Source of the DNA: Raja brachyura
Lineage: Eukaryota
Assembly: GCA_963514005.1 (NCBI GenBank)
Contig: OY740812.1
Location: 30,876,001 to 30,940,000 of the forward strand
Direction of reading: 5' to 3'
Length of the DNA stretch: 64,000 nucleotides
In this document: in pieces, positions 1-37,791 of the stretch
How the letters are laid out: every line of letters begins with the position of its first letter
Numbering within the stretch: the stretch's first letter is position 1
Notes under the pieces: generated by a model
What the model was told of the DNA's origin: nothing
Database searches by the model: none
Seen by the model: the letters and a program-made list of their open reading frames with translations, nothing else
Position numbers and translations under genes: made by a program

Positions 1-2849
1 CAAAGACATGCAGGTTTGTAGGTTAATTGGTCTCTGTGAATTGCCCCTAGTGTGTAGGGAGTGGGATAACATGGAATTAGTGTGAAAGGGTCATAAATGG
101 TCAGCCAGGACTTAGTGGGTTGAGGGACTAGATTCCATGCTGTTTCTTTCAATCAATAAAGAAAAAACCTGTTCACACAAATGAGAAACAAGACACAAAG
201 TGCTGGAGCAAATCAGCATCTTTAGAGAATGTGGATTGGTGATATTTTGAGGTGGGACCAGACTTCCAATTCAGACTTGATTGAGACTGAAGAATCCCAA
301 CCTGAAACATTGCCTACCCATGTTCTTCAGAGTTGCTGCCTGACCCAAGTTGTTCCAACACTTTGTGTCTTTTGTAATAAACCTATGCCATTCTTTGTGT
401 CTACATTTCACACAATGGAATCTAGATTTCCCTCACTCACGATTTTTCACGTTAAATCATCATTTAAAATAATAGGACAAGGCAAAAAATTAATAAAAAT
501 AGGTAAATTGTCTCATATTTATCGTGGAATAAAATAGAATCAATGATTGAGGAAGTAATAGCAGTACAATTGGAAAGTCAGAAGGTAATCAAACAGGGTC
601 AACATGACTTTGTGAAGGGAAAATTGTGCCTGACACCATATTTGAGTAATTCTTCACAATAGTTCCCAAAGTCACTAAACAAAGGTAAAAATCACAAAAG
701 ATTAAGTCAGAGCCCATGTTGTTGGAGGTAATATTTTGGCATGAATAGAGAGCTGGAAGCATGTGTGTGATTTTTTTATTTTAAGTTGCCCCGCACATCT
801 CCTTTAAACGTTGGATCTCTCCTTAAAGCTACGCAGGTTGCATTCATAATAGTTTCTGAGCACAATATACGCATAAACTGTAAAATGTTCTGGCCGTTTT
901 TAGGCTATGCAGCACACACATTAATACGGACAATACCATACTGTACTGTTCTATATTCTGTGCATTATTGGTATAGAACATTGGCTACCAATGGGAGACT
1001 GTACTATGCACTGTTTTTCCAAGAATGCACTGAAGATTTTGGTGTATGATTTGGTGAAGGACATCTTCTGAATGTATTATTACAGGAGGCCAAGGATAAA
1101 GGAGTCATTTTCAAATTGACAAGATTTGACAACAAGCCCAAAGTCCTTAGTGCAGCCCAAGACAGTCCTTAGTGCAGCCCAAGACATATATCATAGTTTA
1201 TTTAGTGTTTTGAAGTATTTACGAGCCTGATGGTCATTGGGAAGAAGCTATTCTTGAACCTGATGGTTACGGTTTTCAGATTCCTATACCTTCCTACCAA
1301 TGGTAGGAATGCACTGTGAATGTGGCCAGTGTGGTGCTGGTCTTTGATGGTGATGGCTGCCTTTTAGAATCAGTGCCTCCTATAGATCCCTTCATTGATG
1401 GGGAGGTCAGTGCCCATGGTGGACCCGGCCGTCCATCAATTGTGTTTCTGATTGACTAAACCCAAAAAATGTTTATAAAGGGTCTCGACCCGGACCATCA
1501 CCCATTGCAGAGATGCTGCTTGTCCCACTGAGTTACTCCAGAACTGTGTGTCGATCTTGTGATGTACCGTTTATGATGAACCAATGTTCAATCTCCCTTT
1601 TATTATTCCATATTAATAGTCTAAAGACAGCCAAAATGTTTTGCAGTGAATGTGTAAGATGTGCTGAGAAACCATTATGAATGGAACATGCATAGGTTTA
1701 AGGTGAGAGGGGTAGAGCTTAAAGGCGATGTGCGGAGCAATTTATTATACACAGAGGATGGTGAGTGTCTGGAATGCGCAGCAGATTTGGTGATTGAGGC
1801 AGATTAGGAGGCTTTTGGGTAGGCATAATATGCAGGGAATGGAGAAGTATAGATTATGCACAGGTAGATAAGAGATGGTCTTGACATCATGTTCAGCAGA
1901 GATGTTGTGGGCCGAAAGATCTGCTCTTGTGACGTACCATGTAGGAAGGAACTGCGGATGCTGGTTTATACTGAAGATAGACACAAAATGTTTGAGTAAC
2001 TCAGTGGGACAGGCAGCATCTCTGGATAGAAAAGGAATGGGTGAAGTTTCAGGGCGAGGTCTGATGAAGGGTCTCAAACCGAAATGCCACCCATTCCAGA
2101 GATGCTGCCTGTCCCGCTGAGTTACTCCAATGATGAGCACCTCACTGTGATGTGCCGTTCTATATTCTATGCACTATGAAGATAGAATGGCTGCCAATGA
2201 GAGACTGCACTTTTTCCAAGAATTCACTGAAAATGTTGGTGCATGATTTGGTGAAGGACATCTTCTCTCTGTATTAGGGCAGGAGGCCAACCTGACTCAT
2301 GCCCTTGAGACAATGGAAAGTCGAAGAGGAATGTAATGAGGTTGATCAGTTTAATAACAAAGTTAGTGATCAAGTCTCTCTTTATGACACAGGAGGCCAT
2401 CTGATCCATCGAGTCTGTGTCGACTCTCACCGCAAGTCCATTCCGCCACTTATTTCAATGTGAGCGTTTTACTTATGAGGAGATGGTTATACATCTAAAT
2501 TTCTCCAATATGTATATGCAACTTGAATACTGCTTTCAACTATAAGTAGCCTGCATAATATCCAAGGAACAGGTTAGACCCGATTCAATTTCTCTCTCCT
2601 TGAAATTATTTACTTCTGGCTGTAAAATTGCCATCCATATAATTTCCATCAATCTAGAAAAAATCATACTTACAATTTAGAAATAAACACATGGGTTAAC
2701 ACTCTGGCTTTTGTAGCAAGTGGATAATGAAATGAAAAATTGAACGTTACAAATTTGAAGCTTGGCTTCAAAAATCTGAAATTACTTTGAAATCAATAAC
2801 TTGTACAAACATGGTAATTAATTAGAAAAACCTAACTACTGCTCCTCCT

Positions 2850-3086
2850 AATGTGTTGCTAATGTCACTGGGGACAGAGACCTTCCTGTTTCAGCTAAAA
2901 TTAATTGTAGAGGAAGCTACACATTAACATGCAGCAGTATTCATTGCATCTCACCAATCAGAGTTGTGATTTTTGAAAACACAAAGTTGACGTTTCTTGA
3001 AATAACTTAGCAATGCTATCGGCAATCAAGGCTTGAAGTACACAAGCAGAAATATTTGTTATTACATTTATTCATTTAATTACTCA
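2850..3086 (+). promoter_or_regulatory. Candidate TATA-less CD79B proximal promoter/5' UTR
   Basis: Unique sequence directly upstream of the ATG; ETS-type cores (CTTCCTGT 2882-2889, AGAGGAAG 2909-2916), CCAAT 2954-2958, no obvious TATA. Motif matches only. Confidence 0.4.
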
Positions 3087-3165
3087 ATGGCTTTCTTTAC
3101 TGGGAAATCATGTCCAGTATTAAATATCCTGATCTTCACGCTCGCCTTTACAAGTTGGATACTTG
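3087..3165 (+). CDS. CD79B: CD79B coding exon 1 (signal peptide MAFFTGKSCPVLNILIFTLAFTSWIL-G)
   Basis: First in-frame ATG after upstream TAA at 3003; hydrophobic leader; strong donor G|GTAAGT at 3165/3166, phase 1, matching the phase-1 Ig exon. Not in the ORF track (too short). Confidence 0.82.
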
Positions 3166-4849
3166 GTAAGTGCCTCTTTCTGTATTTTCCACTTGTCATC
3201 ACACCAAAGTAATATTTGCTCTTGAAGTACTTTGAAATTATCTTTGAGATGCAAAGTAGTGTTCATTTCTGCGTGTCTTTTGTTCAGTCGAATATGTCCA
3301 TGTTTATAAATTAACAAAGGCTTTCTGCAATGCAATTCAGTATGTTCTGTATCTGCAGCTCATATGTCTGAGTGTTATCACTTAAACTATGGTCCCTTAA
3401 GCTCATCAATGTTGCTGGCATACAGCACTTAATATTTGGCTCAAGACAGAATTATACGTTAAAATGATACAGTCCTGTTGCTACTCATAGTAAATCTGTC
3501 CAAACATAAAAACAGGAAGTTATGGCAATAGGCATCAGGTCAGATAGCTTTCGTGCAAAGAAGATATTTTCCTACCCTGACTGGTCTAATAAATGTTTCC
3601 TGCAATTTAGCTGTTCAATACATTTCAGATTAAGTTTTTTCTAGGTTTCTTTATTTTCCAATATTGTTACTTTGGCCGGCCTATTTTGTTGAGACTCTTC
3701 TTTAGTCAAAGGGTAGATCTGTGGAACTTAGAGAGTAGTCAATCATTGCCATAGAGGGCAATGGAGGCCAAGTCAGTTGATATTTTTAAGGCAGAGATTG
3801 GTAAATTCTTGATTAGAACGGGTGTCAAGGGTTATGGGGAGAAAGCAGGAAAATGGGATGAGGAGGCTGAGATCAACCATGATTGAATGGTGGAGTAGAC
3901 TTGGTGAGCCGAATGGCCTGATTCTACTCCTATAACTTGTGAACTTGTGAGAAACAACGGAAAAATTGTCACTGCAGTGCTAAGTGGGTTTTTAATGCCT
4001 CATTCAGAAGACATTGGTTGCAAGCAGCCTGAGAGTTCTACACAGACGCTGAAGGGGATGTAGAAAAATAGGAACACTTGCGTAAGTGTAGGATTTGATG
4101 CATTACTTACTGTAGGATGTTGCTAAGTGTTTTACTGCCAATTAAGTCCTTTCTAAATTGGAATTGCTGTTATAAAGTATATTATAATTACTATTATAAT
4201 TAAAATTACTGTCATAAAGTTCCCACCAACAACAACTGTAGTAAAAATTCAAGTTAACAGGTTGAATTTTTGTATTCCAATTATAGTATTGTCATCAAAC
4301 ATGATAACATTTTATACCCTGCACAAGAGATATTTTATTTATCTATGGTACTGGCCATGTGGGAGTAACGTTAATAGACAATAGACAATACGTGCAGGAG
4401 TAGGCCATTTGGCCCTTCGAGCCAGCACCGCCATTCAATGTGATCATGGCTGTTCATCCCCAATCAGTACCTCGTTCCTACCTTCTCCCCATATCCCCTG
4501 ACTCCGCTATTTTTAAGAGCCCTATCTAGCTCTCTCTTGAAAGCATCCAGAGAACCTGTCTCCACCGCCCTCTGAGGCAGAGAATTCCACAGAATCGCCA
4601 CTCTGTGAGGAAAAGTGTTTCCTCGTCTCCTTTCTAAATGGCATTCTAATGAGCATGAAACACATAATTGACATTCCGGTTGCAATTTTCTAGAACCAAT
4701 ACATGTTTAGAAAATGGTACGCGCCTGGAATGAAGTTGCAAGCCTGAATCAAAGAGTTACCACATGCTTCAGTTTGATTCACAGAGCTATATTCTCATCT
4801 GATCTGCTGAGGGCAAATCCAGCAATGAAACTAGACCTTGAATCATATT

Positions 4850-4959
4850 GTAGACAAAAGTGCTGGAGAAACTCAGCGGGTGAGGCAGCATCTATGGAAC
4901 GAAGGAATTAGGCAAAGTTTCGGGCCAAAACCCTTCTTCAGACTTCTTCACACTACTCC
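4850..4959 (-). mobile_element. Penelope-derived hammerhead mini-element with 15-bp TSD
   Basis: TSD ACCTTGAATCATATT at 4835-4849 and 4960-4974; minus strand reads CTGAAGAAGGGTTTTGGCCCGAAAC. Confidence 0.8.
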
Positions 4960-5107
4960 ACCTTGAATCATATTTAACGTTTCCAATGACTACCTTCTCA
5001 AGGTTCTTTCTTCTTTCTTTGCGGGGTGTGCAAATATGGTGACCCTTGCTCATGTGTGTTCATGGAGGAATAGGAAATTTCTCATCAGAATCCATTGCCT
5101 GTACAGG

Positions 5108-5390
5108 GCTTTACAATGGTAGAGTTGCTGCCTCACAACGCTAGAGACCTGGGTTCAATGATGACTACGAGTGCTGTCGGCGGAGTTTGCTTGTGCTCCC
5201 CGTGAGCGCGTGGGTTTTCTCCGGGTGCTCTGGTTTCCTCCCACATTCCAAAGATGTGCAAATTTGTAGGTTAATTGGCATGGGTAAATTGTCCCTTGTA
5301 TGTAGGATAGTGTGCAGGTGATCATTGGTCAATGCGGACTTGGTGTGCCGAAGCGCCTGTTTGTGCGCTGTATCTCTAAACTAAACTAAA
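5108..5390 (+). mobile_element. tRNA-derived SINE (HE1/V-SINE-like)
   Basis: Pol III-like head (ggtagagttgctgcctcac...gggttcaat), body 'gtttgtaggttaattgg', tail (CTAAA)n. Further copies: 1-155, 8075-8340, 33823-34110, 48688-48945 (+); 14118-14358, 15040-15300, 18505-18680, 19043-19175, 19570-19845 (-). Confidence 0.85.
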
Positions 5391-5622
5391 GCCTCTGCTG
5401 TGGTCGGGTATCCCACACACCAAAGTTTGCACTTCGTGTGCAAGGTGCACTGGACACACAGTTTTGTGATGTCATTGTGCCCTTTCTTTATGATTCAAAA
5501 GTGCATGGGATATTATTGTAGGCTGCATTTCCACGTATTTCATTCTCAAATTGTGCTTTCAAGCAAGCAAGAAATTTAAGGTTACAGTTTTTTTGTGATG
5601 CAAATTTAGATGGAACGAAGGA

Positions 5623-5893
5623 ATGTTCATGGCATTATAGAGTAATCCCTTCTCTTGCTTTAATAATACCAATCACTGGACCTTCCAGTTTTTTTTTCGC
5701 CGCCAAAAGAGCTGTACTTCTCACATCCAATAAACAGGGTAACTTACAATGCATCGATATGAACTTTGAATTTTCCATCATTAGGTTTCTTCTCTCCCAG
5801 ACTACCTCCACCCCTCCTCACCTTTCACCCCACCCAATCTTACCCACCCCTTCCATCTCCTGTACCCCCACCTATTTCTCTCCTTCACCCAAA
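5623..5893 (+). repeat. Left copy of ~270-bp direct duplication flanking the L1
   Basis: atgttcatggcattatagag...ccttcacccaaa, repeated at 7495-7778 with scattered substitutions and one ~13-nt indel. Confidence 0.92.
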
Positions 5894-7493
5894 ACATAAG
5901 AAAGGATATAGAAAGATGGTCCACCTACCCAATGGATTTTAGTAGTAAGATAAATGTGGTGAAAATGAATATTTTGTCAAGGCTATTGTACTCGTTTCAA
6001 TCTCTGCCAATTGAGGTACCATTAAAACAATTCACGGAATGGGATACATTAATATCTAGATTTATTTGGGGAGGAAAGAAGGCCAGAATTCGATACACTA
6101 CTCTACGGTTACCAAAGGACAAAGGTGGAATGGCACTTCCAAATTTTAGGATATATTTCTATGCAGCCCAACTTCAACCACTAATTAATTGGTGTGAGGC
6201 CAGCTATATAGCTAGGTGGAAAGAGATTGAGACATATATCCCTGACTTCCACATCCAAACACTTTTGGGAGAAAAAGCGCTTCCTGGACATATCAGGAGT
6301 ATAATCGATCCAATAACGATATTTACTTTAGAAACCTGGTTCACCCTTACCAGACAACTTAAACTGAATAAACGACAAAAAGTTTTAAGATGGATAGCTT
6401 TGGATAATGAATTTAAACCAGGGATGTATGACTCAACATTTAAAGAGTGGATGAAGAAAGGAATGACTGCATTTTGTACTGTTATTGAAAATGGAGATCT
6501 AAGAAGTTTTCAAGATTTGAAGGATAGATTTGCACTTCGGAACCAAGACTTGTTAAGATACTTCCAACTGAGAGATTATTACAATAAAAAGGTAAAAAGG
6601 GAGGCACTAGAAGAAAATAATCCAGTGATAGAAGTGATAGTTAGTGCGTATCATCAAAAAACATTAAGGATTATTTCTAAACTTTATCATAGTTTAATGG
6701 AATGTCAAGCTAAAACTACATTTACGTAACATTCAAGTGGGAAAAGGAATTGAACATCACAATCTCAGAAGAAGAATGGCATCATATGTGTGTAACACTA
6801 CAGACATCCACTAATTCACAAAATTGGAGAGAATTTAATTGGAAAAATTTGATTTGTTTCTTTATTACGCCTAACATAAAGAGCAAGCAAATTCTAAGGC
6901 AGCAAACCTGCTGGAGGCAATGTGGTCAAACAGATGCAAATCATGCACATATCTTCTGGAGTTGCCCAAAAATAGGACCATTTTGGGACAGAGTGAATTC
7001 AGAATTAACGGAGGTATTAGGATATGCAGTCTGCAAGAAGTGTTCCATTTTATACCTGGGTAATATAAATACAGTGGTGCTGAAGGAAGACCATTACTTG
7101 GTTAAAATCCTACTCACAGCTGGCAGAAAGGCCATTACAAGAAACTGGCTTGGAGCGGACACACCCAGACTTAGACAATGGTTAGACATAGTACAGGAAA
7201 TATTTGTCATGGAGAAAATGACATATTCTCTAAGAGTGAAAGAAGAAAATGGGAAAAATGGATTAGGTATAGAAATAAAGACATCAACACTGTATAATTT
7301 TATAGACAATAATGTAAGTTATTGGAAAATGTTTTAATATGAAAATAGTTCTGTATACTGCATCATTAATTGTAAACTGAACCTCCTGTTACACTGTTGT
7401 ACGTTTCACTGTAATGTTGTATGTTTCGTTGTTATATTTGTGTTTTATTTGTGTATACATAAAAGCAATAAAAACTAAAGTGGAAAAAAAAAA
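5894..7493 (+). mobile_element. 5'-truncated L1-clade LINE (ORF2 C-terminal part, frameshifted) with poly(A) tail
   Basis: ORFs 5932-6729 and 6750-7337: '[13 protein letters not shown]', '[13 protein letters not shown]', CCHC knuckle 'CWRQCGQTDANHAHIFWSC'; AATAAA 7467-7472 and A-tail 7484-7493. Confidence 0.9.
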
Positions 7494-7494
7494 G

Positions 7495-7778
7495 ATGTTC
7501 ATGGCATTATAGAGTAATCCCTTCCCTTGTTTTAATAATACCAATCACTGGACCTTCAAGTTTTTTTTTCACCCCCAAAAGAGCTGTACTTCTCACATCC
7601 AATAAACTGGGTAACTTACAACGCATCGGTATGAACTTTGAATTTTCCATCATTAGGTTTCTTCTCACTTTACCCCCACTCCCAGCCTACCCCCGCCCCT
7701 CCTCACCTTTCACCCCACCCAATCTTACCCTCCCCTTCCATCGCCTGTACCCCCACCTATTTCTCTCCTTCACCCAAA
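7495..7778 (+). repeat. Right copy of the direct duplication flanking the L1
   Basis: Starts immediately after the L1 A-tail; matches 5623-5893. Confidence 0.92.
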
Positions 7779-10700
7779 CCCCCTCCTGCTACTCACCACC
7801 CTCAGGCTTCACAATCAGCAACTCTTCAAATCTGTCTCACACCTTTCATTCTTATCTCTGGCCTTTGTTCCAACTATCTGCCCGTCAACCCACCTGCCAT
7901 GTGTTGTCCTGCCCCACCCCTTTTCCAGCTTTCTTCCCCCCCTCTGAAACTGTTTCTCAGTATTAAATAATCTTCTTTTATTCCTACTAATTCATTTCTC
8001 ACCCAATTGTTGAAGTGTCTGGAGGATGACTACAAATCCAGCAATTTATCTCAGCAATTGCGAGAAACATTTAGGGCGGTACGGTAGAATTGCTACCTTA
8101 CAGCGCCGGAGACCCATGTTTGATCTTGACTACTAGTGGTATTTATACAGTTTGTACGTCCTCCCTGTGACTACATGGGTTTTCTCCAGGATCTCTGGTT
8201 TTCTCCCAAAATTCCTACAAGTTTGCAGGCTAATTGGCTTGGTATAATTGCAAATTGTGTACAAAGATTGCTGGACAGCACAGACTCGGTGGGCCCAAGG
8301 GCCTGTTTCCGTGCTGTATCTCTAATTTAAAAAAACTAAAATCTGGATCGGGGAACACAATACAGTCTAGGGTATTAAAGAAGCAATTTCGCTTTTTTCT
8401 CCAAAAGATTTTTTAACACATCTTTATTTTCTTCCTATAAATGTTCAGCATAATTATTGATCCAAAATATGAAAAACATTTCAACATGAACACCTTACAT
8501 TTATAGCAAACAGGAAGAGGCCACAGTAGAAAAAATAGATGCATTTACTGATTTGTAAGTTTCTTAGTACTGGAAATGATAACTATCTCACTGCAGTTTT
8601 TGAACCATGTTAGATTGGGTACAAGAAGGCGCCTCAAGTTACAGCTCAGTAAACAGTGATTCCTGTGAAAATAGACAGGAAGAAGCAGTAGATATCTCTG
8701 CGCAGCATGAGTTTTAAGAAGTTCCTGTCTGAACATAACTTCTTTGTGCATCTGTGATCTTGCCCAAGAGACAACATTCTGTGGTCTCAGTGCAAACCTG
8801 AAGTGAGATAACGATGTACCAGTACACACAGTAATGGAGCACCTGCTCTGCTCGAATCTGAAGAACGGTCTCGACCTGAAACATCTCCCATTCCTTCTCT
8901 CCAGAGATGCTGTCGGTCCAGCTGTTACTCCAGCTTTTTGTGTCTATCTTCAGTGTAAACCAGCATCTGCAGTTCCTTCCCACACACATGAATGGAACTG
9001 TCCCCACCCAATTGGAAAGTAGCCTATAGACAACAGAGGGAATAAATTGTTTCACCTGTGATTAAACCTTGTCAGTAACTGAAGGAAATATTTGTTGACC
9101 GTTGGTACCTTAATGTGCTCACATTTAGAGAAACAACAAATTGCAGATGTTTTTTGACAAAAAGGATCCCAACTGGAAACATCATTTACCATGTTCTCCA
9201 TTGATGATGCTTGACCCACTGAGTTACTCCAGCACTTTATGTTTTTTGTTGTACTCACATTCAGCTTAATTGTATTACATTGTCAACCAATCCTCACTTG
9301 AACATGGATAAATGAGAAGGGGAAAATGTACAACTACCTAGAACAATCACTCTCCAAGTTTATAGATCGTCACAGACAGGCACGTGCCGTCAGGGTAGGC
9401 AAGGTAGGCACTGCCTACCCTGACTAAAATTATGAAATGGCAATTTTTAAATATAAATAGTAAAGGCATGGGAGAATTATGCCTGTCTAAGAGATCGATC
9501 TCTTAGGTAGGCATAATTCTCCGTGCCTTTCACCCGCAGCGCTTGTAACACGGGAAGCTCTGTGCAGCCCCCGTGCCGTCAGCGCTGCCTGAGCCGTCAG
9601 ATTGAATGGGAGCTGAAGGCAGCAGAAATTCTGCCTTTGCAGCACTGCGCATGTGCATCATCTTTCTGCGCATGCGCATCGCGAGTTTCTTGGCGGGATG
9701 TTCAAATATGGATTGCCATTATTTTAATAGTATCTTAGCAAACAAATGGAGAATGGACTTAATGTACCAATAATGTGGTAAGTGCATTTCTTTGTGCTTT
9801 ATGTTTTTAAATACTGTAGTTCCCAGGGTGGGGGGAGAGCTCCGTTCACAGTGTTTGGGCAGTCTGGCGTTGTGAAGGAGGGGATCGGGGTCAGTAACCC
9901 ACTTGCCACGCTCCGGTCTGAGTGCAGGTGAGATGGGACTAGGTGAGAGTAAAAGTGTGTGAGGGGTGAGAAGTCCATGCCGGGTGCCGGCCGGCCGCAG
10001 CCGCTGTTCAGATTGTTGGGAGACGGAGCTCAGGGTTCGCCTCTTGAGCTGCTTTGGTGCCCAGGCGTAAGTTGAGGTGGAAGGTGGTTGGGGGTGCGGG
10101 GGGGGGGGGGGGGCTCGTCTTCTGAAGAAGGATCTCGACCCGCTGAATTACTCCAGCAGTGTTAAAGAAGGAACTGCAGATGCAGCAAAATCGAGCGTAC
10201 ACAAAATTCTAGAGAAACTCAGCGGGTGCAGCAGCATCTATAGAGCGAAGGGATGGGTGACAGGAGGGTCTCGACCTGCTGAAATTCTCCAGCATTTGGA
10301 TCTAAACATCACCCATCCCTTCCCTCTAGAGATGCGGCCTGTCCCACTGAGTTACTCCAGCTTGTGTGTGTCTATCGTTGAATGGGTGACGTTTCGGGTC
10401 AAGACCCTTCTTCGGACTGAAAATAAAACTTGCCTCGCGTGAAGCGGCTTGTAAATTAAAACATAAAAACAAGAAATGCTAGACTCATTTATGTGCTCCT
10501 ATTCATTTACCTGGCCTGTTGCTGTCCTCCCTCGTCCACCGTGAGCGCTGGACAACTCACTGGGTGCAAAACTCCGCTGCATTCCGGGCGGAGGGCGATG
10601 ATCACCCGACTGACCGGCAAGTAGAGGCGGCGGGTCGGTCAAGCCCAGCTCCCCGCCACCGGGATAAACACCACTACTGGAGTAAACTCAGCGGGATCTC

Positions 10701-11144
10701 TGGAGAAGTCTGAAGTAGGGTCTCGACACGAAATCTCACCCATCCCATCTCTCCAGAGATGCTGCCAGTCCCTCGGAGTTACTCCAGCATTGTGTGTGTC
10801 TATGGGTTACACAAAAAGCTGGCGAAACTCAGCGGGTGCAGCAGCATCTAAGGAGCGAAGGAGATAGGCGACGTTTCGGGTCGAGGCCCTTCTTGTGTGT
10901 GTCTATCTTCGGTGCAAACCAGCATCTGCAGTTCCTTCACAATCCCACACTCTCGGGCCCAGGGGGTGGATGGAGCATCACACGTGGATACAACCCACTC
11001 ACTGCCCAGACTTGCCCCTCCGGCAGGTCTTTAACCGCGTCCTAAAGCCATTCGTGTTAAAGAAGGAACTGCAGATGCTGGAGAATCGAGGGTTACACAA
11101 AGCTGGAGAAACTCAGCGGGTGCTGCAGCATGAAGAAGGTCAGC

Positions 11145-11180
11145 AGGTCTGAAGAAGGGTCTCGACCCGAAACGTCGCCT
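11145..11180 (+). ncRNA. Minimal type I hammerhead-ribozyme motif (Penelope pLTR-type)
   Basis: AGGT-CTGAAGA-A-GGGTC-TC-GACCC-GAAAC-GTC-GCCT: stem I AGGU/GCCU, CUGANGA core, stem II hairpin, GAAA, GUC triplet. Activity not shown. Confidence 0.7.
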
Positions 11181-11552
11181 ATCTCCTTCGCCCCTTCGAT
11201 GCTGCTGCACCCGCTGAGTTTCTCCAGCTTTTTGTGTAACCCCCATCTCTCACCTGCCGTTCGACGGCTTCGCTCATGTCAACCGCGTCCCGCAAATCCT
11301 TAAATTCCCACAGCCAAGTAACCTAAACTGGACCCGTGAACGCGCTGTCGGAATTTAAAGATTTGCGGGAAGCCGGCCGGCGAGCGGCAGGTGAGAGATG
11401 TTCAGACGGAGAGCACTGCCAGAGGTGAGTGGGGACCAGCAGAAGGGGCTGAAGTGGCAGGGTCCCGGCGGCCACTCGCAGTCACCCGAGCTGCTTCCTT
11501 CCGCGGAAGTGGCGGCCAGTTCTGCTGTCCGTGTCCGGCAGGTGAGAGATGG

Positions 11553-11752
11553 GGGTTACACAAAAAGCTGGAGAAACTCAGCGGATGCAGCAGCATCTAA
11601 GGGGCGAAGGAGATAGGCGACGTTTCGGGTCGAGACCCTTCTTCAGACTCAGTCTCAGTCTGAAGAAGGGTCTCGACCCGAAACGTCGCCTATCTCCTTC
11701 GCCCCTTAGATGCTGCTGCACCCGCTGAGTTTCTCCAGCTCTTTGTGTAACC
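11553..11752. repeat. Near-perfect ~200-bp inverted pair of Penelope-derived mini-elements with a hammerhead core on each strand (11615-11650 minus; 11656-11691 plus)
   Basis: gggttacacaaaaagctggag...cttcagact / cagtctc / agtctgaag...ctttgtgtaaccc; arms are reverse complements with few mismatches. Confidence 0.88.
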
Positions 11753-13118
11753 CTCGATTCTCCAGCATCTGCAGTTCCTTCTTTAACACGGAGGGTGAGA
11801 GATGTTCAGACGAAGAGCACTGCCAGAGGTGATCAGAAGGCGCTGAAGAGCAGTCGGTTCTGGTGTTGGGTCCCGGTGGCCGCTCGCACCCGAGCTGCTT
11901 CTATCCCCGGAAGTGGCGGCCAGTTCTGCTGTCCTTGCCCGGAGCGCTGCGGCAGCGGTGAGTGAGTTTGATATGATCTCTGTCCCCCTCCTTCTCAAAA
12001 CTTCTCCCTTCTCGCATATTTAACCCCTGCCACAGGCTCCCCACACGCTGTGAAAGGAACTCCCCCTCCAATTGGACCCTTGAATTAGTATTGTCATTCC
12101 ATAAGATGACAACTGATTCAACGTCCCGATGTGCTCCCGTTTTTCCCACCATCTCTCCACCTGCCTTCATCCTCCGTCCCCCACCCATTCAGTAATTAAA
12201 AAAATGAAGGAGATTTAGAACCCTTGGGAAATTTGAATTGTTACTTATTTTTATTTTTTTACGAAGAGAACAATCTGCGCATGCGCGGTTTTAAGATTTT
12301 TTGAAAGCCGGCTGACTGCCTACCCTGAGTAATTACTCACGGCACGTGCCTGGTCACAGATTACATCACAGCATTGCCACGTTACCACATGTAATATATC
12401 AAATGCTAAACACTATCATGCATTCAGCACAAGTTTGCTGCATTATCATGGTCACTCATTAAGCACTAATTTGCTGGTATTGTTATTTGACCAATTTAAT
12501 CATGCCTTCCCACTGGCCACTTGTTCTACAAAGGTATATACACTAGAACAAATGGATAAAGCTAGATCAAACGATTAGGTGGGAATCATCTTGGAAACCT
12601 ACAATGCATTTATTTGATTATACTGGCCCCCTTCCTCCAGGGCTGCATGCGGAATTTAATCTGAGAGAAATATAATCATTTGTGTGAGATATTGACCATT
12701 TATTTTCAGACCCAGTGTGTGAAGGATATGGTTAGTGTGAGGGGATCTCCGGTCGGTGTGGACTCAGAATGCCGAAGGGCCTGTTTCCATGCTGTATCTC
12801 TAAACTAAATAAAACATGAAGTCCATTCACTTTCTCCACAGCAAATATTCAGATACAGGTACTCACATGGATCCAAGCTACAAAGCTCTTTTGTGGGGTG
12901 TGGGGAAAAAGCCCTTTCTTTCTCGATCCCCCTCCTTCACCACTTTCCCAGTACATTGATGATTATATTAGCGCTGCTTTGGATTCTTATACAGAACTTG
13001 AAAGTTTAATTACCATTGTTGCTAACCTCAACAATTATTGCTCTGACTTTCGCAAGGTTCCTTGCTCAGATTCCCTTTCCATTTCTTCACCTCTGGTCCT
13101 CCACTTCAGGATTACTTA

Positions 13119-13419
13119 AGGGCCTGTCCCACTTTCCCGAGTCCTCTGCCGAGTTGAAAGGACCATAAAAAAAAAAATTCAAGATTTTTGTGTTCTATGA
13201 ACTCCTCCTCCCGACTATCTTTTTACTCATGGACTTTTTTGTCATGCTGGAAAAAACGTCCCGACTTACCTGATGGCCCCAGTACCTACGGTTGACATAA
13301 CGAGCCGCTACGATATATCTACGGACTCCTACGGCCTCGCTACGGACATTCTCCGAGTTTGAATCGAGGGGAAAACTCAGGAGAATTTGTGAGGAACTCG
13401 GGAATGTGGGACAGGCCCT
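13119..13419. mobile_element. PIF/Harbinger-type MITE
   Basis: TIR AGGGCCTGTCCCAC (13119-13132) / GTGGGACAGGCCCT (13406-13419); TTA on both flanks (3-bp TWA TSD). Confidence 0.88.
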
Positions 13420-13673
13420 TTAGTGATTAATATCCATTGCAAGTCCATATAACTGTGCAGGACAGTTCTAGTGTACAGGGTGATTGCTGGTCAGAGTGGA
13501 TTCGGTAGGCCAATGGGCCTGTTTCCACGTTGTATCACTAAAGTCCAAAATCTAATAGTCTAATTAGTTTAGTCACCAATAATGTGTGAAAATTTGGTGA
13601 TGTCAAGTCGACTTCTATTACTTTAAATCATTGCAGGAAAGAAATACATGTATATTGTCTGTTTTGCTTTCAG

Positions 13674-13973
13674 GTGTGTTCTGTGCGGAGCAGAAGGTCA
13701 AGTACTCTGAGCCGTACCGCGCTGTTATCAAAGGAAACAATGTGACTCTGCGGTGCTCCTTTGACAACTTACCTGATGACAATAAGTGCCACATCAAATG
13801 GTATAAAGACGGAAAAACCCCCATTGAATTGAAAGGCACAACAAACAACAACTGTGAAGCCTTGCTGAGAATTTACAATGCAAAGACATTTCATTCAGGG
13901 ATTTACTACTGCGAATTGCAAACAAACACCAAATCGGTAGTCCAGTGTGCAGCAGAATTGAGCGTGCAACCAA
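13674..13973 (+). CDS. CD79B: CD79B coding exon 2, extracellular Ig domain (300 nt, phase 1-1)
   Basis: Acceptor tctgttttgctttcag|, donor A|GTGAGT; encodes VTLRC...IKWYK...LLRI...SGIYYC...VVQCAAELSV (B-strand Cys, C-strand Trp, F-strand YYC, G-strand Cys matching the Ig-beta interchain Cys in 'QGCGTELRV'). Confidence 0.92.
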
Positions 13974-16390
13974 GTGAGTAAAAGCAATATCCTATCAGGA
14001 TGCTCACCTGCTGTTTCAACATTTTTAGAATACACATCTTTAAGTTCATAATTTTTCTTTCATAACTCATGCATATTCCAACATCTGCAATTTTATTTGT
14101 TTTCCATGAATTCCTCTTTAGTTTAGTTTAATTTAGAGACACAGCACGGAAACAGGCCCTTTGGCCCACCGAGTCTATGCCGGCCGGCGATCCCTGTACA
14201 CTAGCAGTGTCCTGCACGCTAGGGACAATTTACAATTTTAGCAAAGCCAGTTAACCTACAAACATGCATGTTTTTAGAGTGTGGGAGGAAACCGCAACCC
14301 CCCGGAGAAAACCAACGCGGTCACAGGGAGAATGTGCAAACTCCGTACAGACAGCACCTAGGTGCCACATTTTCAGGGAAACTACTTCAGGAGATCTCGA
14401 GTGCGCTCTCGTAATTTTGCCCAAATTGAAGGAGGTGCTAGACCACTAGTTCCAGGAAAATCGATGGTGGGCCTGTATCATCACCAGTGGTTAGAGTAAA
14501 AATGCAATTCAGGCAAAACCCTTGTGGTGATGCTGTTCAATGTAAATTGGAAATAGCAGTGAAAATGTGCAAATTGGGATAAAGTAAAGTACACTGGACT
14601 GTGTCACCCTCATTTACAAGGTGAAGTTTTTGGTCATCAGCACAGGCTGTTGTAGCAACCGCTGTCCCCATTGTTTGGCAATCCCAATTGTTGAGTGTCG
14701 TTTGCCTCCTCCTCTCAACACACCAGCCCCCATTGCACCACTCCCTGTCAACTCAAGGATTTCATTTGAACTCACCTGGTTCACAAGGAATGTCATGACA
14801 ACACTGTGTAAACTTTTTTTTTAACAGGCAAAATAATTGTATGTTCAGTATCGAAATACAACAGTTGAGAAAATCTGTCCTGCAACCAAATTTGATGGAT
14901 TAACACCAGACTTTCAACTAGTCCGGCTGACTCAGGATGTTGGTGGTGCTCAGATGGCAGATTGGACAACTATTGGATTTTACTGCCTTTGATACCCAAA
15001 CGCATTTAAAACATTTTTTCATTTTGATTTGATTCCAAAAATACAGCATAGAAACAGGCCCTTCGGCCCACCAAATCCATGCCAACCATCGGTTATTTAT
15101 TCACACTAGTTCTATGTTATCCCGCTTTTTCATCCATCCCCTGCATACAGAAAGCAATTTACAGAGGCCAATTAACCTACACAACCACACAACAGGAGCA
15201 CCGGAAGAAAACCAGACAGTTACAGGGAGAACGTGCAAACTCCACACAGACAGCACCCGAGGTCAGGATCGAAACTGGGCCTCTGCCACAATGAGGCATG
15301 GACTCCAGTAGTATTGGAATAATTTAAGGAAAGTTAGAGAAGGAAAGCTCTAGCGAATTTAGAGTATGCAGGAAGTGCAGTCCAATAAATTTAATGGAAG
15401 CATGGGAAACAGATTCTGAATGAAATTAAACAGGTTTAAAAGAAGTATGTGAAATGTCTCCAATGCGTTTATAGGGATTGCTCAAAATATGTCCGAGTTG
15501 GGGAGCCAGGGCCAGGTTAGTTTAAAATGAGTGCAGAATTGAGTGCCCTGGTAAGTTTAGAAGGAGGTGAGGAAAGAGGCACTTTAAAGGGTTTAAAGAG
15601 GATGGTAGGAACATCACGTTACAAGCCAGATGCCAAACCACTGAGATTTCAAAATAGTCGGATAATTAGACGTCTAGTTTAGTTATGGTGTCACTAAATT
15701 ATGTCAGGAAAATAAAATCTGAGCCAATATTCCAACACCTTCCAACCTTCTATCAAAACAGTACAATCAGAAAATGTTCCATTGAAACGTATTACTTTCA
15801 ATCTAATTTACTGTTTACATTGCGCCTCAGCTGAGAAGGAAATTGCAACTAGGTCAGATCTGTGCCCTTGAAAGCAACAAAAACTGTAGACTTTGTCAAT
15901 CCGTAAACAAAAACAAACAATACTGAAAAGTGCAGCTCAGGCAGAGAGAGAAATAAGGTTAATAGTGTCACCCAGCGTGGAAGCAGGACCTTCAGCCCAA
16001 CTTGCCAACATCTCCCATCTACACTAGTCCCACCCACCAGCGTTTGGCCCTTATCCTTCTAAACCTGTCCTATCCATGTACATGTCTAATTGTTTCTTAA
16101 ACATTGCAAGAGTCCCTGCTTTAACTACTTCATCTGGCAGCTCGTTCCACACCCACCATCCTTTGTATGAAAAAGCTATCCCTCAGGTTCCTATTAAATC
16201 TTTCCCCCCTCACCTTAAACCTATGTCCTCTGATTCTCCACTCCCCTACTTTGGGAAAGATACTTTGTGCTTCTACCCAATCTAATTATTTTATACACCT
16301 CTATAACATCACCCCTAATGTCCTGCGCTCCAAGAAATAGAGTTCCAGCCAGCTCAGACCCTCAAGCCCTGGCAACATCCTCATAAATCT

Positions 16391-16518
16391 GGAGGAAGGA
16401 ACTGCAGATGCTTGTATAAACCGAAGATAGGCATAAAAAGCTGGAGTAACTCAGCGGGACAAGCAGCATCTCTGGAAAGAAGGAATGGTGATGTTTTGGG
16501 TTGAGACCCTTCTTCAGA
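16391..16518 (-). mobile_element. Penelope-derived hammerhead mini-element with 11-bp TSD, inserted in a CR1 fragment
   Basis: TSD CTCATAAATCT at 16380-16390 and 16519-16529. Confidence 0.8.
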
Positions 16519-16942
16519 CTCATAAATCTTCACTGCACTTCACAGTGCGATGATATTTTGACTGAACCAAGAAAAAGTTAATGCTTGAGGCTCAGCTGTT
16601 CAGTTGCGATTATGAAAGAAGCCTTAATTTCCATTTCCTCTGCCTTTAATGTCAACTGCTTTCATACTGGGCAGCTGATTACATGCACGTCATGGGCTGC
16701 ACGATTACACTGACACCTTCATCTTTCAATGTTTAGCAATTGAAATCATCTGAATTGAACATCAAACTCTTTATCAAATCTAGGCTTTTACAGTGCTAAT
16801 TTTTAAATCTTTGTTTGATGTTTGTGATCTGCTTCAATATGGTTTGCCCCAGCGGGTCTGTGCATTACGGGAAAGTTTAGGGACCATTTTTAAATTGGGT
16901 ATTAAATGATCAGGGAGGAGCCTACTTTAGGAAGAAGGAAGC

Positions 16943-17330
16943 ATAGAAACATAGAACATAGGTGCAGGAGGAGGCCATTCGGCACTTCGAACCAGCACCG
17001 CCATTCATTGTGATCATGGCTGTTCATCCCCAATCAATAACCCGTGCCTGCCTTCTCCCCATATCCCTTGATTCCACTAGCCCTTAGAGCTCTGTCTAAC
17101 TCTCTCTTAAATCCATCCAGTGATTTGGCCTCCACTGCCCTCTGTGGCAGGGAATTCCACAAATTCACAACTCTCTGGGTGAAAAAGTTTTTTCTCACCT
17201 CAGTCTTAAATGGCCTCCCCTTTATTCTAAGACTGTGGCCCCTGCTTCTGGACTCGCCCAACATTGGGAACATTTTTCCTGCATCTAGCTTGTCCAGTCC
17301 TTTTATAATTTTATATGTTTCTATAAGATC
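16943..17330 (-). mobile_element. CR1 LINE 3' fragment (similar copies at 4373-4642 and 27655-28000 minus; 3715-3950 and 18682-19035 plus)
   Basis: ORF 17034-17273 'MFPMLGESRSRGHSLRIKGRPFKTEVRKNFFTQRVVNLWNSLPQ'; tail atagaaacatagaacat. Confidence 0.88.
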
Positions 17331-20300
17331 CTGTAAGATTCTACAACAAGCAGTTAGGATGCTTTTTGATTGAAATCTTTGTGCTGGAACTACTAAAGAA
17401 TCAATTTGCCACAGTTTTCTGATTGTGTGAGGATCTGGATTGTTGATGGGTTAGCGGTGTAGATGGGAAGCCATTCCCAAATTGAATTGAATTGCATGGG
17501 GGTCAGGAGCACAGCCACTAAGTGTTGAGTTATTATAATTGGCCATTCACAACACTGGAATGGGATAAATGCAGGAATCGCAGAGAGTTGCAGTACTGAG
17601 GGAAGAAACTGAGACAGGGACATTACAGACCAAACTGCAAAATAAAGACAACACAATCAAGGCCTCACTAGACTTAAAGCCAATGAAGGTCTGTGTTCAT
17701 TGGGAATGGACAAATTGAACTTGATCCTAGATTAGGACGTGAGATGCAGAGAATAATGGTGAGGTCAGCCAGAAGGGATTTTGATTAGTCAGATCAAACA
17801 AATACACAAACATGAATGAGAGTTTCAGTAGAAGGTGAGTTGAAATAAAGTCAAAGATGAAGTATGTTATGCAGGCAGAGATAAGTGAAATAGATGAGAA
17901 CAATTAAGAAAGCATATGGCATTTTGTAGGTTATTTCGACAAGAGTACAACTTATATTTATGTTAGTATTAACTAATTATATTAACATTTGAAGTCAATC
18001 TAGTTTAAGATAGACTTTGGTGCAGGTGTCTTACTTTATTTTCAAACATTGGGTGAGAAAGCAAAGAAACTCCAATGTAATATGTCTCCAAGTAATTCCC
18101 TTCCATTTCCCATCTAACATCGAAAAAGAAAGTGTCACTTTGGTAGTGAGCCATAACACTAGGGCATTGCCTGACTGGCACTGGGGTGAAGGAGACATTA
18201 GATCTTGGTGTAAGGGTACGAGGTTATAAAAAGCACTTAATAGAAGTAAGACTATATTTATAAAAATAGGCACTAATGTCAAAGTTCAATTATGGGTGGA
18301 TGGAATTGACAGGACAAGAGAATCATATGATGTTGCTTATACCGACCCTGCAGTGCTGTGCAAAGCTCATGTCTCCATCTTATATTGAGGTACCAGAAAT
18401 TAAATTGAGGCTTTCCACTTTTAATCAGACTGGAGCTCATTTCCCTTGAAGAAGAACGTGGTAACAAGATGATGGAACACCATCGAACACATTATAATTC
18501 AATGCGTTTAGTTTTGAGATGCAGCGCGAAAACAGGCCCTTCGGCCCACCAGGTCCACGCCGACCACATAAACATTATCCCACACACATTAGGAACAATT
18601 TATTTTACAGTTTACCAAGCAAATTAACCTACAAACCTGTACGTCTTTGGAATGTGGGAGAAAACAGAAGATCTCCGAGAAAAGGATTGGACAAGCTAGA
18701 TGCAGGAAAAAAATTCCCAATGTTGGGGGAATCTAGAACCAGGAGCCACAGTCTAAGAATAATGGGGAGGCCATTTAAAACAATGAGAAAATTTTTTTTC
18801 ACCCAGTTGGGAATTTGTGGAATTGTCTGCCACGGAAGTCAGTGAAGGCCAATTAACTGGATGAATTTAAAAGAGAGTTAGATAAAGCTCTTGGGGCTAG
18901 CAGAATCAAGGGATATGGGGAAAAGGCAGGCACAGGTTACTGATTGTGGATGATAAGCCATGATCACAATGAATGGCGGTGCTGGCTCAAAGGGACGAAT
19001 GGCCTCCTCCTGCACCTATTTTCTATGTTTCTATTATTCTATTAAAACCCACGCAGATCATGGGGTGAACGTACAAACTCTGTACAGCCGGCACCCGTAG
19101 TCGGGATCGAACCTGGGTCTCCAGCTCTGCAAGCGCAGTAAGGCAGCAACTCCACCACTGCTCCACCGTGCTGCCCAGGGTAAACAAGATAAACATGAGC
19201 AGAAAGATACGATTGGGTTACAAAGGGGGTGGTGGAAAGATGATTCAGTGCAGTATAAATGTCAACATTGTCCATTTGGATGGCTATTTTCTGTTATATA
19301 AGTTTTATGTAATTTCCCTTCGTCCGCCACTATAAATGGACGAAGTTATAGATTTCTCAGCCTTTCTTTCTTTACCTGTCAGGTAAATTCTGTCCATGGA
19401 TGGTTGGGTAGGGGCCGAATGTACAATTCTTTTAGCTTTATTCATCACTTCAATAGCATTTTTCGTGTAACAATGACAATATCAGAGAGAAAATTTTCTT
19501 AGAAGTCCATTAATTGAGAGATTATTGGGTTTAGAATAGAACTCGGGGCAAAATCCAAAAAAAAACAATAGTTTAGTTTAGAAATAGAGCCTGGAAACAG
19601 GCCCTTCGGTCCACCGAGTCCATGTCGACCCATACTACTAATTCCATCCTACACATTAAGGACAATTTGAGGAAGTCAATTAATCTACAAACATACATGT
19701 CTTTAGAATGTGGGAAGAAACCGCTTCACCTGGAAGAATCCCATGCGGTCACAGGGAGAACATGCAATCAGCATTCAGAGTCAGGATCGTTCCTGGATTT
19801 CTGGCGCTGTAAGGCAGCAACGCCACCGCTACACTACTGTGCCATCCACAATTACATCTGCACTGCATAAATGACCATAAAGAGAAACATTAGTAAAGTT
19901 TAATGACATGTTAATCACAATGATAACTAAGTTAAAGATGTAAATAAAACTGATGACACCATCGTACATGACAGATGTGGAAATGTTTCTCCATTAATCT
20001 GATTTGAATATTCACGCAAATACACATGAAAAGTTTAAATATGGTGGACTGCTGAATAATAATTTATCTTTTCATATTACATAAAGTGACTATAATAATC
20101 AGGCAAATCCATCCCATCTGCTTTCACTAGAGGTGTATTAACATAACTTATAGATGGAAAGGGCATTGACCCAAACACTGACTGGTTTCTCCTTCCACAG
20201 ATGCTGCTTCACTGGTTGTGTTCTTCCAGCATTTCTGTTTTTGTTGTATTTATATAGCAATGTATACGTCCCTAAGCAACACAAAGTCATGGAATAATTA

Positions 20301-21371
20301 TAGCAGTGAGCCGTGAAGCCCTGCACTGCATGGTCCCACAAATGTGAATGATCTCAGTTTTGACAGATTGGTTTTGAAAGGTAAATGAGAAGGGAATAGT
20401 ACTGAAATCTGAATTTAATACAGAACATTCTAGAGGTACTCAGCAAGTCAGGCAGTATCAGTGGAGAAAGAAACAGAGCTAATGTTCAGAAGGATTAACT
20501 TACATTTGTACCAATGGATAAATATTAATCAAAGAACATAGAACATTGAACAGTACAGCACTGGGGGCAACGGTAGAGTTGCTGCCTTACAGCACCGAAA
20601 CCCGGGTTTAATCCTGACTGCGGGTGGATGAACGAATGAATGCTTTATTTTCACATGTGACAAGTCACAGTGAAATTCCTTGCTATTACCAAGGTATGCA
20701 AATAGTCACCACAAAAAGAGCATACTCACTGCCATGTGGTCCATCCTCATCCGCTGGGTGGCGTCCTCATTGACCGCTACACCAACCTCCCTACTATCAC
20801 CGCCAGATCCCCTCCTGACACCTCCGTGGCATCGACCCAGGGGCCGGTCGTGGGCTCAGCTGACCCAGCTCCGTCAGCCACGGGCTCCGTCGACGTCTGG
20901 CTCCTGCTCCGGCCCAGGCTTCTCCGCGGCCTCCTGGGAGACGTCTGCATCACCTCCGTGAGGCTCCGTTGGAGCCAGACCAAGCAAAAGGCCCTTGAAG
21001 CCTGCTCTACCATTTATCAAGATTATGGTTGAATTTCCATCTCAGCACCATCTTTTTAGATTACCCACCACACCCCTTGATTCTTTCAATATCCAAATCA
21101 GCGAAGGATAAAACTCTGTTCCTAATGAACTTCTGTGTGAGCCTCCACAGTCCTACAAATGATGCACCATCCACTGAATGAAGACACATCTCCTCAACTT
21201 AGACTATGTTCAGACTATGAGTCTTGGTACTAGACGCATCAGCCAGCATAAACAGTTTCATCAATCCAGCCTGACAAACATTTGTGAGTTGCAATGACAT
21301 TACTTCGAATTCTTCTAAACTCCAGTAAATACTCCAGACCTTGCAAATTTAATCTCTCCTCGTTGATGTTC

Positions 21372-21968
21372 AGGCATGGAATACTGAGGCTCTATAAGGC
21401 ACTGGTCAGACCGCATTTGGAGTATTGTGAGCAATTTTAGACCCCATTTCTGAGGAAGGAGGTATTGGCATTGGAAAAGGTCTGGAGGAGGTTTACGAGA
21501 ATGAACCCAGGGATGTTTGGGTTAACATATAATCAGCGTTTGATGGCACTGGAACTGTACTCACTGTAGTTTAGAAGGATAAGGTGGAACCTCATTGTAA
21601 CTTACCGAATAGTGAAAGGCCTTGATAGAGATGATGTTGAGAGGATGTTTCCACTAGTGGGAGAGTCTAGGACCAGAGGGCACGGCCTCAGAATAAAAGG
21701 ACATACTGTTAGAGAGGAAATGAGAAGGCATTTCTTTAGTCTGAGGGTGGTGAATGTGTGGAATTTATTGCCACAGAAGGCTGTGGAGGATGTCATTGGG
21801 TATTTTTAAGGTGAAGATTAACGGATTCTTGATTAGTGAGGATGTCAGGAGTTATGGGGAGAAGGCAGGAAAATGGGGTTGAGAGGGAGAGATAGATCAG
21901 CTATGAATGAATGGTGGAGTAAACTCGATGGGCTGAATGGCCTATTTCTGCTCCTAAGACTTATGAAC
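21372..21968 (+). mobile_element. CR1 LINE 3' fragment
   Basis: 'MFPLVGESRTRGHGLRIKG' and typical CR1 3' UTR. Confidence 0.85.
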
Positions 21969-22794
21969 TCATTCAGCAAACCTGCCATCCCTGGAACCAG
22001 TCAAGTGACCTTTCCCTCCACTCCCTTGATTGCAAATGCATTCCTTCTGGAGACCAAACCTGTACTTTAGTTGCAGTCCCACCAAGGCCCTATATTGTGC
22101 AGCATGACTTCATTACTTCTGTACTCAAAGACATCCTTTATTTCCATTATCGCTTGTTGGACCACCATGTCCACTTTCTATAACTTGTGTGCAAGAACTC
22201 TGTGGTGCTATTGGACATCAATCTAGGTGATATCACAATGTTTTCACATTATTTCTACCAGCCATGAGGTTTGTTCACTGACTCACTTTGTTCAAACTGG
22301 CTCTCTGAGATTTGATTCTGGACTTACTTTGTCTTTAGCATGAATGTGGATGGAGGGCACAGGGTGAGCACAGTGATATCAATCAACATGCAATCCCCTC
22401 TTGGACAAATCTCTAGGGAAATGTTTCTGTGGATACAAGGCTCACAAACAGCATGGTTTTAGAACATTGAAGTAGAGTCTAGTGCATTGAAGAATGGTTT
22501 AGAGGGATTATGTGCAAATCACAGACAGGTGGGAGTAGTGTAGATGGGGCATCCTGGTTGGCATGGGAAGTTGGGCCAGAGGGCCTGTTTCTGTGCTGGA
22601 TGACTCTAGAATTATTTCTGTCATGCATTATCTAACAAAAATACTCATGACAGAACGTCAATAAATAGAAGCGGACCATTAGTGGTCAGTTGTAATTCCC
22701 ACACGAAACAAGAACTCTTCTTCATTTGGATGCAAGTCGATGGAATCAGTTTTTCCTTGACATGTAACTAAGTGAAATACAATGTTCACGATAA

Positions 22795-24483: not shown

Positions 24484-24602
24484 AAACCACTGAAGTGAAC
24501 CAAAGGAAGACTGCGACCACAATGAAAGACATGTTGATTTTAACCCAGGGAATTCTGCTGATGCTCTGCCTCACTTTGCCGGGAATGTTGTTCTTTAACA
24601 AA
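24484..24602 (+). CDS. CD79B: CD79B coding exon 3, stalk + transmembrane (119 nt)
   Basis: Acceptor atgttcccttcag|, donor AAA|GTAAGT; encodes KTTEVNQRKTATTMKDMLILTQGILLMLCLTLPGMLFFNK, aligning to mammalian TLKDGIIMIQTLLIILFIIVPIFLLLDK with the Q-X10-P motif; same length and phases (1-0) as the human TM exon. Confidence 0.95.
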
Positions 24603-31682: not shown

Positions 31683-31683
31683 T

Positions 31684-37768: not shown

Positions 37769-37791
37769 AAGATAGTCTGATTATACAATAT

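Follow-up and report, generated by a model that had tools for sequence, protein, structure and literature searches.

The short repeats that recur throughout the window (the 64,000 nucleotides of Raja brachyura contig OY740812.1 analysed here, in which positions are counted unless a locus is named) are, on the reading that we consider likely, separate and mostly decaying insertions of the pLTR of a Neptune-type Penelope-like element (PLE). Such insertions would have arisen when RT started internally on an uncut, capped transcript leader, and the two sense copies in intron 1 of the gene CD79B would be passengers, predicted not to cleave. As a ribozyme discovery the finding is ordinary; PLE minimal hammerheads have already been described. 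Its value lies in the record that these copies keep of how PLEs replicate, a process still poorly understood: the young copies number tens of thousands, and their fixed 5' edge, extra G and two 3' ends suggest that copying is initiated internally on a capped leader that has not been cut.

The 28-nt core of the focal copy (11149..11176, + strand) comprises CUGAAGA, a bulged A, a 4-bp helix II with a CUCG loop, GAAA, an ACGU palindrome and a GUC site. An earlier note on this DNA, made from the letters alone, had reported intact cores in the region of 11145, at 11660 and at 49851 on the + strand and at 11615-11650 on the - strand; the exact core is indeed present at each, at 11149, 11660 and 49851 (+) and at 11619-11646 (-). 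Altogether the window holds 20 ungapped copies of the core with at most 8 mismatches, and in 5 of the 20 both boxes are retained together with the ACGU palindrome and an NUH site. The remaining 15, spread over 1472..62676 (at 1472, 2061, 4914, 8858, 10122, 10388, 10710, 10870, 16490, 24099, 29836, 30999, 38831, 62114 and 62649), are decayed and lack the combination of core and palindrome. Ten positions had also been put forward as variants of the hammerhead, a description that does not survive: nine lack the boxes, the palindrome or the NUH site, and the tenth, at 53452, has a GUU site with a helix I of 1 bp.

In the 2.7-Gb genome the exact 28-mer occurs 50,608 times, against 0 in the control, and the generic core CTGANGAN{11,15}GAAACGTH has 143,956 matches, against 263 in the control. 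Thus, the core motif is not due to chance, and the very high copy number that had been proposed for it is borne out. Sixty arbitrarily spaced 10-kb stretches, in which family copies were located by means of a downstream anchor, contain 156 copies, or about 7x10^5 genome-wide by extrapolation. Scanning the window against Rfam at E<=5 gave no match to a hammerhead family; the matches returned were of hairpins to models of the miRNA type. Nor was there a second, unrelated hammerhead family in 1.38 Mb, where both of the 2 matches outside the main form are variants of this family.

Judged by its sequence, the motif is the known PLE minimal type I hammerhead, whose self-cleavage is predicted only for the dimer. 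The reading of 11145-11180 as a complete minimal type I hammerhead thus holds for the type of motif but not for its completeness as a monomer, in which the A15.1-U16.1 pair has a probability of 0. Because GAAAC-GUC leaves helix III without a loop, the three-way junction cannot form in a monomer; helix III, which the earlier note had correctly described as very short and palindromic, is a zero-loop ACGU that could pair only between two copies. Folding gives a helix II of 4 bp, GGGU/ACCC with a CUCG loop (GGGU/GCCC with UUCG at 53452), and the proposed GGGUC/GACCC of 5 bp would need a 2-nt loop, which the energy model forbids. The extra base that had been noticed after A9 is real: between A9 and G10.1 stands an unpaired A in 141 of 145 folded cores, and the G10.1-C11.1 pair is G-C in 92/120 copies and G-U in 14/120. 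Covariation of the stems, which had been suggested as a check, is nearly absent from helix II, with one two-sided change in 480 cells (120 random copies by 4 pairs). In the native leader (L077:3984-4120) the 5' hammerhead box is predicted to pair with the part of the tail beside the second 3' end site; folded in this way, the ribozyme would be blocked and the two ends of the module drawn together.

Comparisons with the literature, here and below, refer to the accessible portions of the papers cited. The conserved boxes CUGANGA, GAAA and UH that identify PLE minimal hammerheads are all present, and the family shares with those described in PMC4209133 the same CUGANGA/GAAA/UH core, the unpaired base 9/10.1 and G10.1-C11.1, the palindromic 15.2-16.2 without loop 3, the location in pLTRs, and the occurrence by the thousand per genome, mostly as solo copies and also in opposite-strand pairs. 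Helix II is shorter here than in S. mansoni (4 versus 7-8 bp), and so is native helix I (2 versus 4-5 bp), although a D. virilis PLE variant has 2 bp as well (PMC4209133); the family falls short of a 4-5-bp helix I, yet lies within the range of described PLE variants. Coelacanth has about 4,000 and Xenopus about 9,000 such motifs (PMC4209133), compared with roughly 144,000 cores here, whose sequence heterogeneity is low. The accessible text of that paper, whose supplements may list the family, names no shark or ray. It reports that a single PLE minimal hammerhead motif is not cleaved and that dimers cleave weakly.

The source of the repeats can be identified from the coding element at 51948..53354 (+), a 5'-truncated and frameshifted PLE that runs from the RT core to GIY-YIG with 86-92% protein identity to the intact ORF of locus L077. 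The same motif follows these RT/GIY-YIG frames at 53452, within the element's 3' pLTR (53448..53544, +; helix II GGGU-UUCG-GCCC, GUU site, helix I of 1 bp). A search with the window's C-terminal PLE frame yielded 95,169 first-look candidates, 142 of them scored, and sixteen long-frame PLE loci were retrieved for comparison. L077 consists of a pLTR, a 1,191-aa ORF and a second pLTR; L082 is a tandem array with three cores about 3.97 kb apart, and tandem arrays of the coding element are made of units of about 4 kb. The long ORF begins about 165 nt past the core and encodes RT with DKG and YIDD motifs, a CX4CX2C motif (aa 1058) and, at the C terminus, GIY-YIG, although the matches to RVT_1 (E=5e-4) and GIY-YIG (E=1.8e-3) are both below the Pfam cut-offs; a Pro/Ser-rich stretch of about 300 aa extends it to 1,191 aa. 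By its linker the element would be Neptune-type, the linker motif fitting Neptune or Nematis.

The module at 11147-11242 matches the pLTR of the L077-type element almost letter for letter, and hence the short repeats are the ends of the coding family: their sequence identifies them as pLTR modules of 95-130 bp. The earlier attribution to a coding PLE was right, as the same module flanks the RT/GIY-YIG ORF in L077, in L082 and at 53452 in the window. Besides the focal module (11147..11242, +; a member of subfamily A that stops at the first of the 3' end sites), the window contains an inverted partial pLTR ahead of it, consisting of the tail and 3' half (11053..11131, -; from blastn and folding), an antisense module (11553..11655, -; core 11619-11646 intact), and, head-to-head with the latter, a sense module with an intact core at 11660-11687, a 2-bp helix I and a tail of about 36 nt (11655..11790, +). 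A solo module of the older ACCCAT subfamily, with an intact core and a 2-bp helix I, lies outside CD79B (49848..49945, +).

The arrangement of the coding element has close parallels. The Poseidon PLE PAc of Anolis carolinensis (Frangieh et al. 2024, PMC11167929) has the same tandem pLTR-ORF layout with the hammerhead at the junction, and the same two internal RT starts bounding an optional tail; by comparison with PAc, features of the skate element are the Neptune/Nematis zinc finger in the RT-EN linker and the ORF start about 165 nt downstream of the core. Neptune-clade EN+ PLEs (Craig et al. 2021, PMC8557442) share the C-terminal GIY-YIG, the CX2-5CXXC linker, 5' truncation, partial tandems, inverted 5' copies and a tail of 30-40 bp; relative to these, the Pro/Ser-rich stretch and the resulting ORF length distinguish the present element. 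Inverted pLTRs, tails and solo pLTRs have been described for PLEs (PMC3846280).

Several further features of coding copies deserve mention. Two full-ORF copies lack a complete 5' pLTR, one starting directly after the tail (L076:4270) and the other inside the hammerhead (L078:4030). An upstream frame of about 40 codons, seen by eye at L077:4035-4160, opens within the pLTR and runs across the main ATG in a different frame. The window also holds two older and more diverged coding PLE fragments, at 30058-33781 (-) and 42539-43577 (-), with 47-65% protein identity to L077; the first sits antisense in CD79B intron 4.

We now consider where the copies begin and end. Subfamily A was sampled without regard to the letters upstream of the core, and 68 copies remained once hAT loci and duplicates had been excluded. 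Native upstream sequence amounts to 0-5 nt in 52 of them, 6-11 nt in 4, 12-199 nt in 2 and at least 200 nt in 10. At the other end, 28 of the 68 stop 65-67 nt after GUC and 16 stop at 99-103 nt, positions that bound the optional tail; according to PMC11167929, such tails mark two internal RT start sites. Starts at the cut site (+26..+30) are rare, occurring in 2 of the 156 random copies, 107 of which begin at or before +2, and this near-absence fits an uncut template. In PAc, likewise, uncut RNA serves as template and no RNA-seq ends fall at the cut site (PMC11167929). TSDs of 9-17 bp flank 40 of 110 non-inverted short copies, a count made without a shuffle control. The ORF-start motif, with 797 genomic copies, provides a second view of the same edge: in 27 of 30 such loci the sequence ends after another 37-136 nt, and of the 10 fragments that reach the core, 5 stop at -3..-6. 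Therefore, the ORF-start fragments come from the leader end of the transcript.

The edge also often carries a foreign base. Native sequence upstream of the core reads ..ACCAGT or ..ATCAGT; among 27 unselected copies in which AGT is preceded by a base other than the native C, that base is G in 16 (background 0.28, p=6.5e-4). An extra G is found by eye in 37 of 42 tandem junctions among the first 100 of 584 sites. G-bridged joints to the same A occur in three species. For L1, an extra G is a sign of the cap in insertions of full length (PMC11702581). Less favourably, A comes close to G in the first 100 genome-wide DAGT matches, also viewed by eye, which comprise 52 G, 38 A and 10 T, at least 7 of the 52 G-type matches appearing to be hAT copies. 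Further points against a capped start are that the edge is spread over about 6 nt and that it can also be read as a 3' splice site (a pyrimidine tract plus CAG). In D. virilis a better helix I is supplied by splicing; for the genomic copies here that origin was rejected, since 133 short copies share no upstream exon. For PAc, no capped-leader edge such as the one we infer here is described in PMC11167929, and the literature on hammerheads of cartilaginous fish and skates and on PLE start sites gave no account of the family or of the extra-G edge, although subscription papers, Repbase or supplements may hold one.

These ends suggest that the modules were copied by internal initiation from a capped and uncut transcript leader. 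Transcription would start on, or close to, the A that precedes the core by three bases. RT would then begin at either of two internal positions, roughly 65 and 101 nt beyond GUC, as for the Anolis PLE in vitro, copy through the uncleaved ribozyme and add a base opposite the cap, whereupon the cDNA would integrate, sometimes after fold-back or re-copying. The ribozyme may matter only to the active element, as a weak and probably protein-assisted dimer. The family identity, fixed ends, TSDs and extra G of the copies are established, as are the hAT-like carriage and near-neutral decay described below.

Depending upon which transcript is copied and what halts the copying, other processes could leave similar ends, and it is important to disentangle them. 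If the copies were made from the 3' end of a read-through PLE transcript, on which RT stalls at the folded hammerhead or at a bound protein, the edge would be a roadblock. Such an origin agrees with 5' truncation as the rule for PLEs (PMC8557442), with the coincidence of the 5' edge and the edge of the motif, and with the predicted pairing of 5' box and tail in the native leader; the long copies, moreover, clearly derive from the 3' pLTR. A stall, however, predicts no non-templated G at the edge, and the ORF-start fragments, whose start lies only downstream of the 5' pLTR, end at that edge too. We consider a roadblock fairly unlikely. Another possibility is that the solo copies form a SINE-like, non-autonomous family with its own internal promoter, mobilised in trans by the PLE protein. 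D. virilis Penelope does have an internal promoter (PMC2377424), the ends are fixed and partly flanked by TSDs, and about 72% of subfamily-A cores are short. But short and long copies share sequence and variants, no diagnostic short-only lineage was seen (in a comparison made without a tree), and the leader of the coding transcript would yield the same product, so that a SINE-like source seems to us quite unlikely. It would in any case involve the copying mechanism that we propose for the leader, only the source locus being different.

As for constraint on the core, the copies and their consensuses give two answers. In 96 random core-spanning copies (100, less 4 in small groups), the catalytic sites have 75 substitutions where 84 are expected from base-matched sites; mutations are slightly fewer at catalytic A positions than at other A (21/474 versus 48/614, p=0.024), though 31/94 copies show a change at G12, which is a CpG site. 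Just 26 of the 100 random copies that span the core are intact. The consensuses of five subfamilies, in contrast, differ at 0-1 of 28 core nucleotides versus 4-14 of 58 downstream. Since the consensuses keep the core while individual copies decay near-neutrally, the motif is constrained in the active lineages and decays after insertion. The expectation that the core is conserved across copies thus applies to the subfamily consensuses and not to the catalytic sites of inserted copies, which decay about neutrally.

Helix I requires separate treatment. In 35 of 42 copies with element context the native helix I is 2 bp; its third pair is broken in 93/120 copies, and it reaches 4 bp in 10 of 191 distinct copies. 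The stem AGGU/GCCU that had been described for the focal copy does pair over 4 bp, but its 5' strand AGGU (11145..11148, +) is junction sequence and not native to the PLE. This junction is present 325 times genome-wide because it is carried inside a 2,976-bp TIR element (9377..12352), which is non-coding and hAT-like, has an 8-bp TSD at 9369-9376 and 12353-12360, and holds 7 family copies as cargo. Eight of 12 sampled carrier loci match at 97.5-98.9% identity over about 2.7 kb and the other four match partly; all 9 complete carrier elements that were checked have the 8-bp TSD. The TIRs are short and start with CAG, and no frame in the element exceeds 142 aa. We take this carrier, a young element with at least 325 copies, to be a non-autonomous hAT-type DNA transposon: like such elements it has short TIRs, an 8-bp TSD, no long ORF and near-identical copies, and it differs from them in its cargo of PLE hammerhead modules. 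In contigs of two related species, B and C, the sequence skips from 9368 to 12353 and from 9376 to 12385, and thus the carrier site is empty in both. A near-perfect hairpin of 70 bp lies at 9461-9531, just within the left end of the element.

The best stem of the focal copy is thus a chance junction spread by a second transposon. One compound insertion would have entered the hAT-like element, gained its 4-bp helix I by an accident of the junction and spread as cargo. Genome-wide, 9,065 of 32,607 subfamily-A cores retain 10 nt of native upstream sequence, and 3,073 of the 32,607 have a 4-bp helix I (purine-GGT start), a number higher than expected from random flanks. Outside the carrier, many 4-bp stems, viewed by eye at 30 loci, open with re-copied element sequence, and we attribute the excess to re-priming on the element's own GGGT, a pattern read from about a dozen of the 30 loci viewed and without a formal test. 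Selection for helix I was rejected as an explanation, the 4-bp stems coming from hAT carriage (325/3,073) and, by inspection, from re-copied element sequence. A single hammerhead that folds well in a genome can owe its form to a chance junction, of which an unrelated transposon has then made many copies.

Re-copying is also suggested by the micro-tandems. Head-to-tail repeats of the module at a spacing of 30-42 nt occur at 584 sites among the 143,956 cores, or about 0.4% (examples are L262-L281); some arrays are three- or fourfold, and junctions often differ within one array. They look like the product of iterative re-copying by RT. Two complete cores are present in 13 of 20 tandem loci, and in all 13 the double-hammerhead fold lies above the MFE. 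The genome also has 1,595 exact head-to-head palindrome centres. One could imagine a more active joint reading, in which RT copies the capped leader and slips back by 30-42 nt to re-copy the module, much as telomerase does, and in which some of the resulting double hammerheads (584 sites) and of the approximately 3,000 junction-completed copies (325 of them spread by the DNA transposon) are active and cut host pre-mRNAs; we give this reading little credence.

Finally, we turn to the copies within CD79B, whose exons were mapped with four ray and skate CD79B proteins. The homologues place the coding exons within 3087..35031 (+), at about 3087-3165, 13674-13975, 24486-24602, 26070-26123 and 34936-35031; an exon 1 at 8529 was ruled out, since they place exon 1 at 3087. 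A PDB search with the Ig exon returned generic Ig matches only. Sense copies do lie in a CD79B intron, as the earlier note had stated: those at 11149 and 11660 are both in intron 1, and both inside the TIR element. Counting all copies in the introns of this one gene, 6 are sense and 7 antisense, or 2 and 4 without the cargo.

The two intact sense cores are 511 nt apart on the same strand, the intact antisense copy lies between them, and each sense copy is predicted to pair with it. In a fold of 821 nt the focal copy pairs with the antisense copy, helix I having a probability of 0.06-0.07 and the dimer helix III one of 0; in a 231-nt context the probability of helix I is about 0.2. The double hammerhead has an energy of -15.9 kcal/mol versus -27.7 for the best dimer fold, and the native motif -6.7 versus -19.7, energies that ignore Mg2+, tertiary contacts, proteins and co-transcriptional order. 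Judging from dimer topology, the 4-bp helix of a cis dimer would direct a cut after 11687, and not after 11176 as had been supposed. PMC11167929 reports that the Anolis PLE hammerhead cleaves only with protein, and earlier work cited in PMC2995048 that cutting by an intronic hammerhead leaves splicing largely intact. Because of the predicted antisense pairing, the unfavourable dimer folds, the weak published PLE dimers and the tolerance of splicing, cleavage of CD79B pre-mRNA, or an effect on CD79B, is unlikely under these models.

The earlier note had gone further and proposed a retrozyme-like RNA family whose sense copies could cut CD79B pre-mRNA. In its full form this reading would have the copies transcribed, self-cleaving as dimers and circularising, with sense copies cutting host pre-mRNAs such as that of CD79B. 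The family does share with non-LTR retrozymes (PMC7229834; bioRxiv 10.64898/2026.07.22.740005) a type I hammerhead, a link to PLEs, a non-coding nature and high copy number. In its favour, the core is kept among the subfamily masters, thousands of copies have a 4-bp helix I, close tandem pairs exist, two intact cores neighbour each other in CD79B intron 1, and the Anolis hammerhead cleaves with the help of protein. Retrozymes, however, come as tandem repeats (about 170-400 nt according to PMC7229834; consensus of 51-972 nt in bioRxiv 10.64898/2026.07.22.740005) with a hammerhead in each unit, of canonical type I with a 6-bp helix I and loop contacts, and with abundant monomeric circular RNAs. 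Here we find dispersed pLTR modules of a coding element that bear a minimal motif, only the micro-tandem fraction of cores being closely repeated, at a spacing of 30-42 nt. The copies are dispersed monomers whose ends do not match the cut site and more than a quarter of which, in subfamily A, keep native upstream sequence; junctions vary within several micro-arrays, unlike copies of a circle; and double-hammerhead folds are less stable than the best dimer fold by 12-15 kcal/mol. The antisense copy in intron 1 and the tolerance of splicing noted above argue against an effect on the host gene, and 8 of 9 Xenopus dimer elements were uncleaved in a survey that included one chondrichthyan (bioRxiv 10.64898/2026.07.22.740005). 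The proposal is, in our judgement, highly improbable. Were even some of the sense copies in introns to cleave, the ribozyme load of skate genomes would be large; nothing here shows cleavage.

The window contains other repeats as well. Tandem arrays of units of about 29 bp and 39 bp occupy 54200-55000. Gag-like and RT frames, the latter with an RVT_1 match, lie at 44820-47018 (+) and presumably resemble a DIRS-type retrotransposon. LINE fragments are found at 5785-7337 (+; assigned by eye) and, with RVT_1 matches, at 32226-33134 (-) and 56592-58247 (+).
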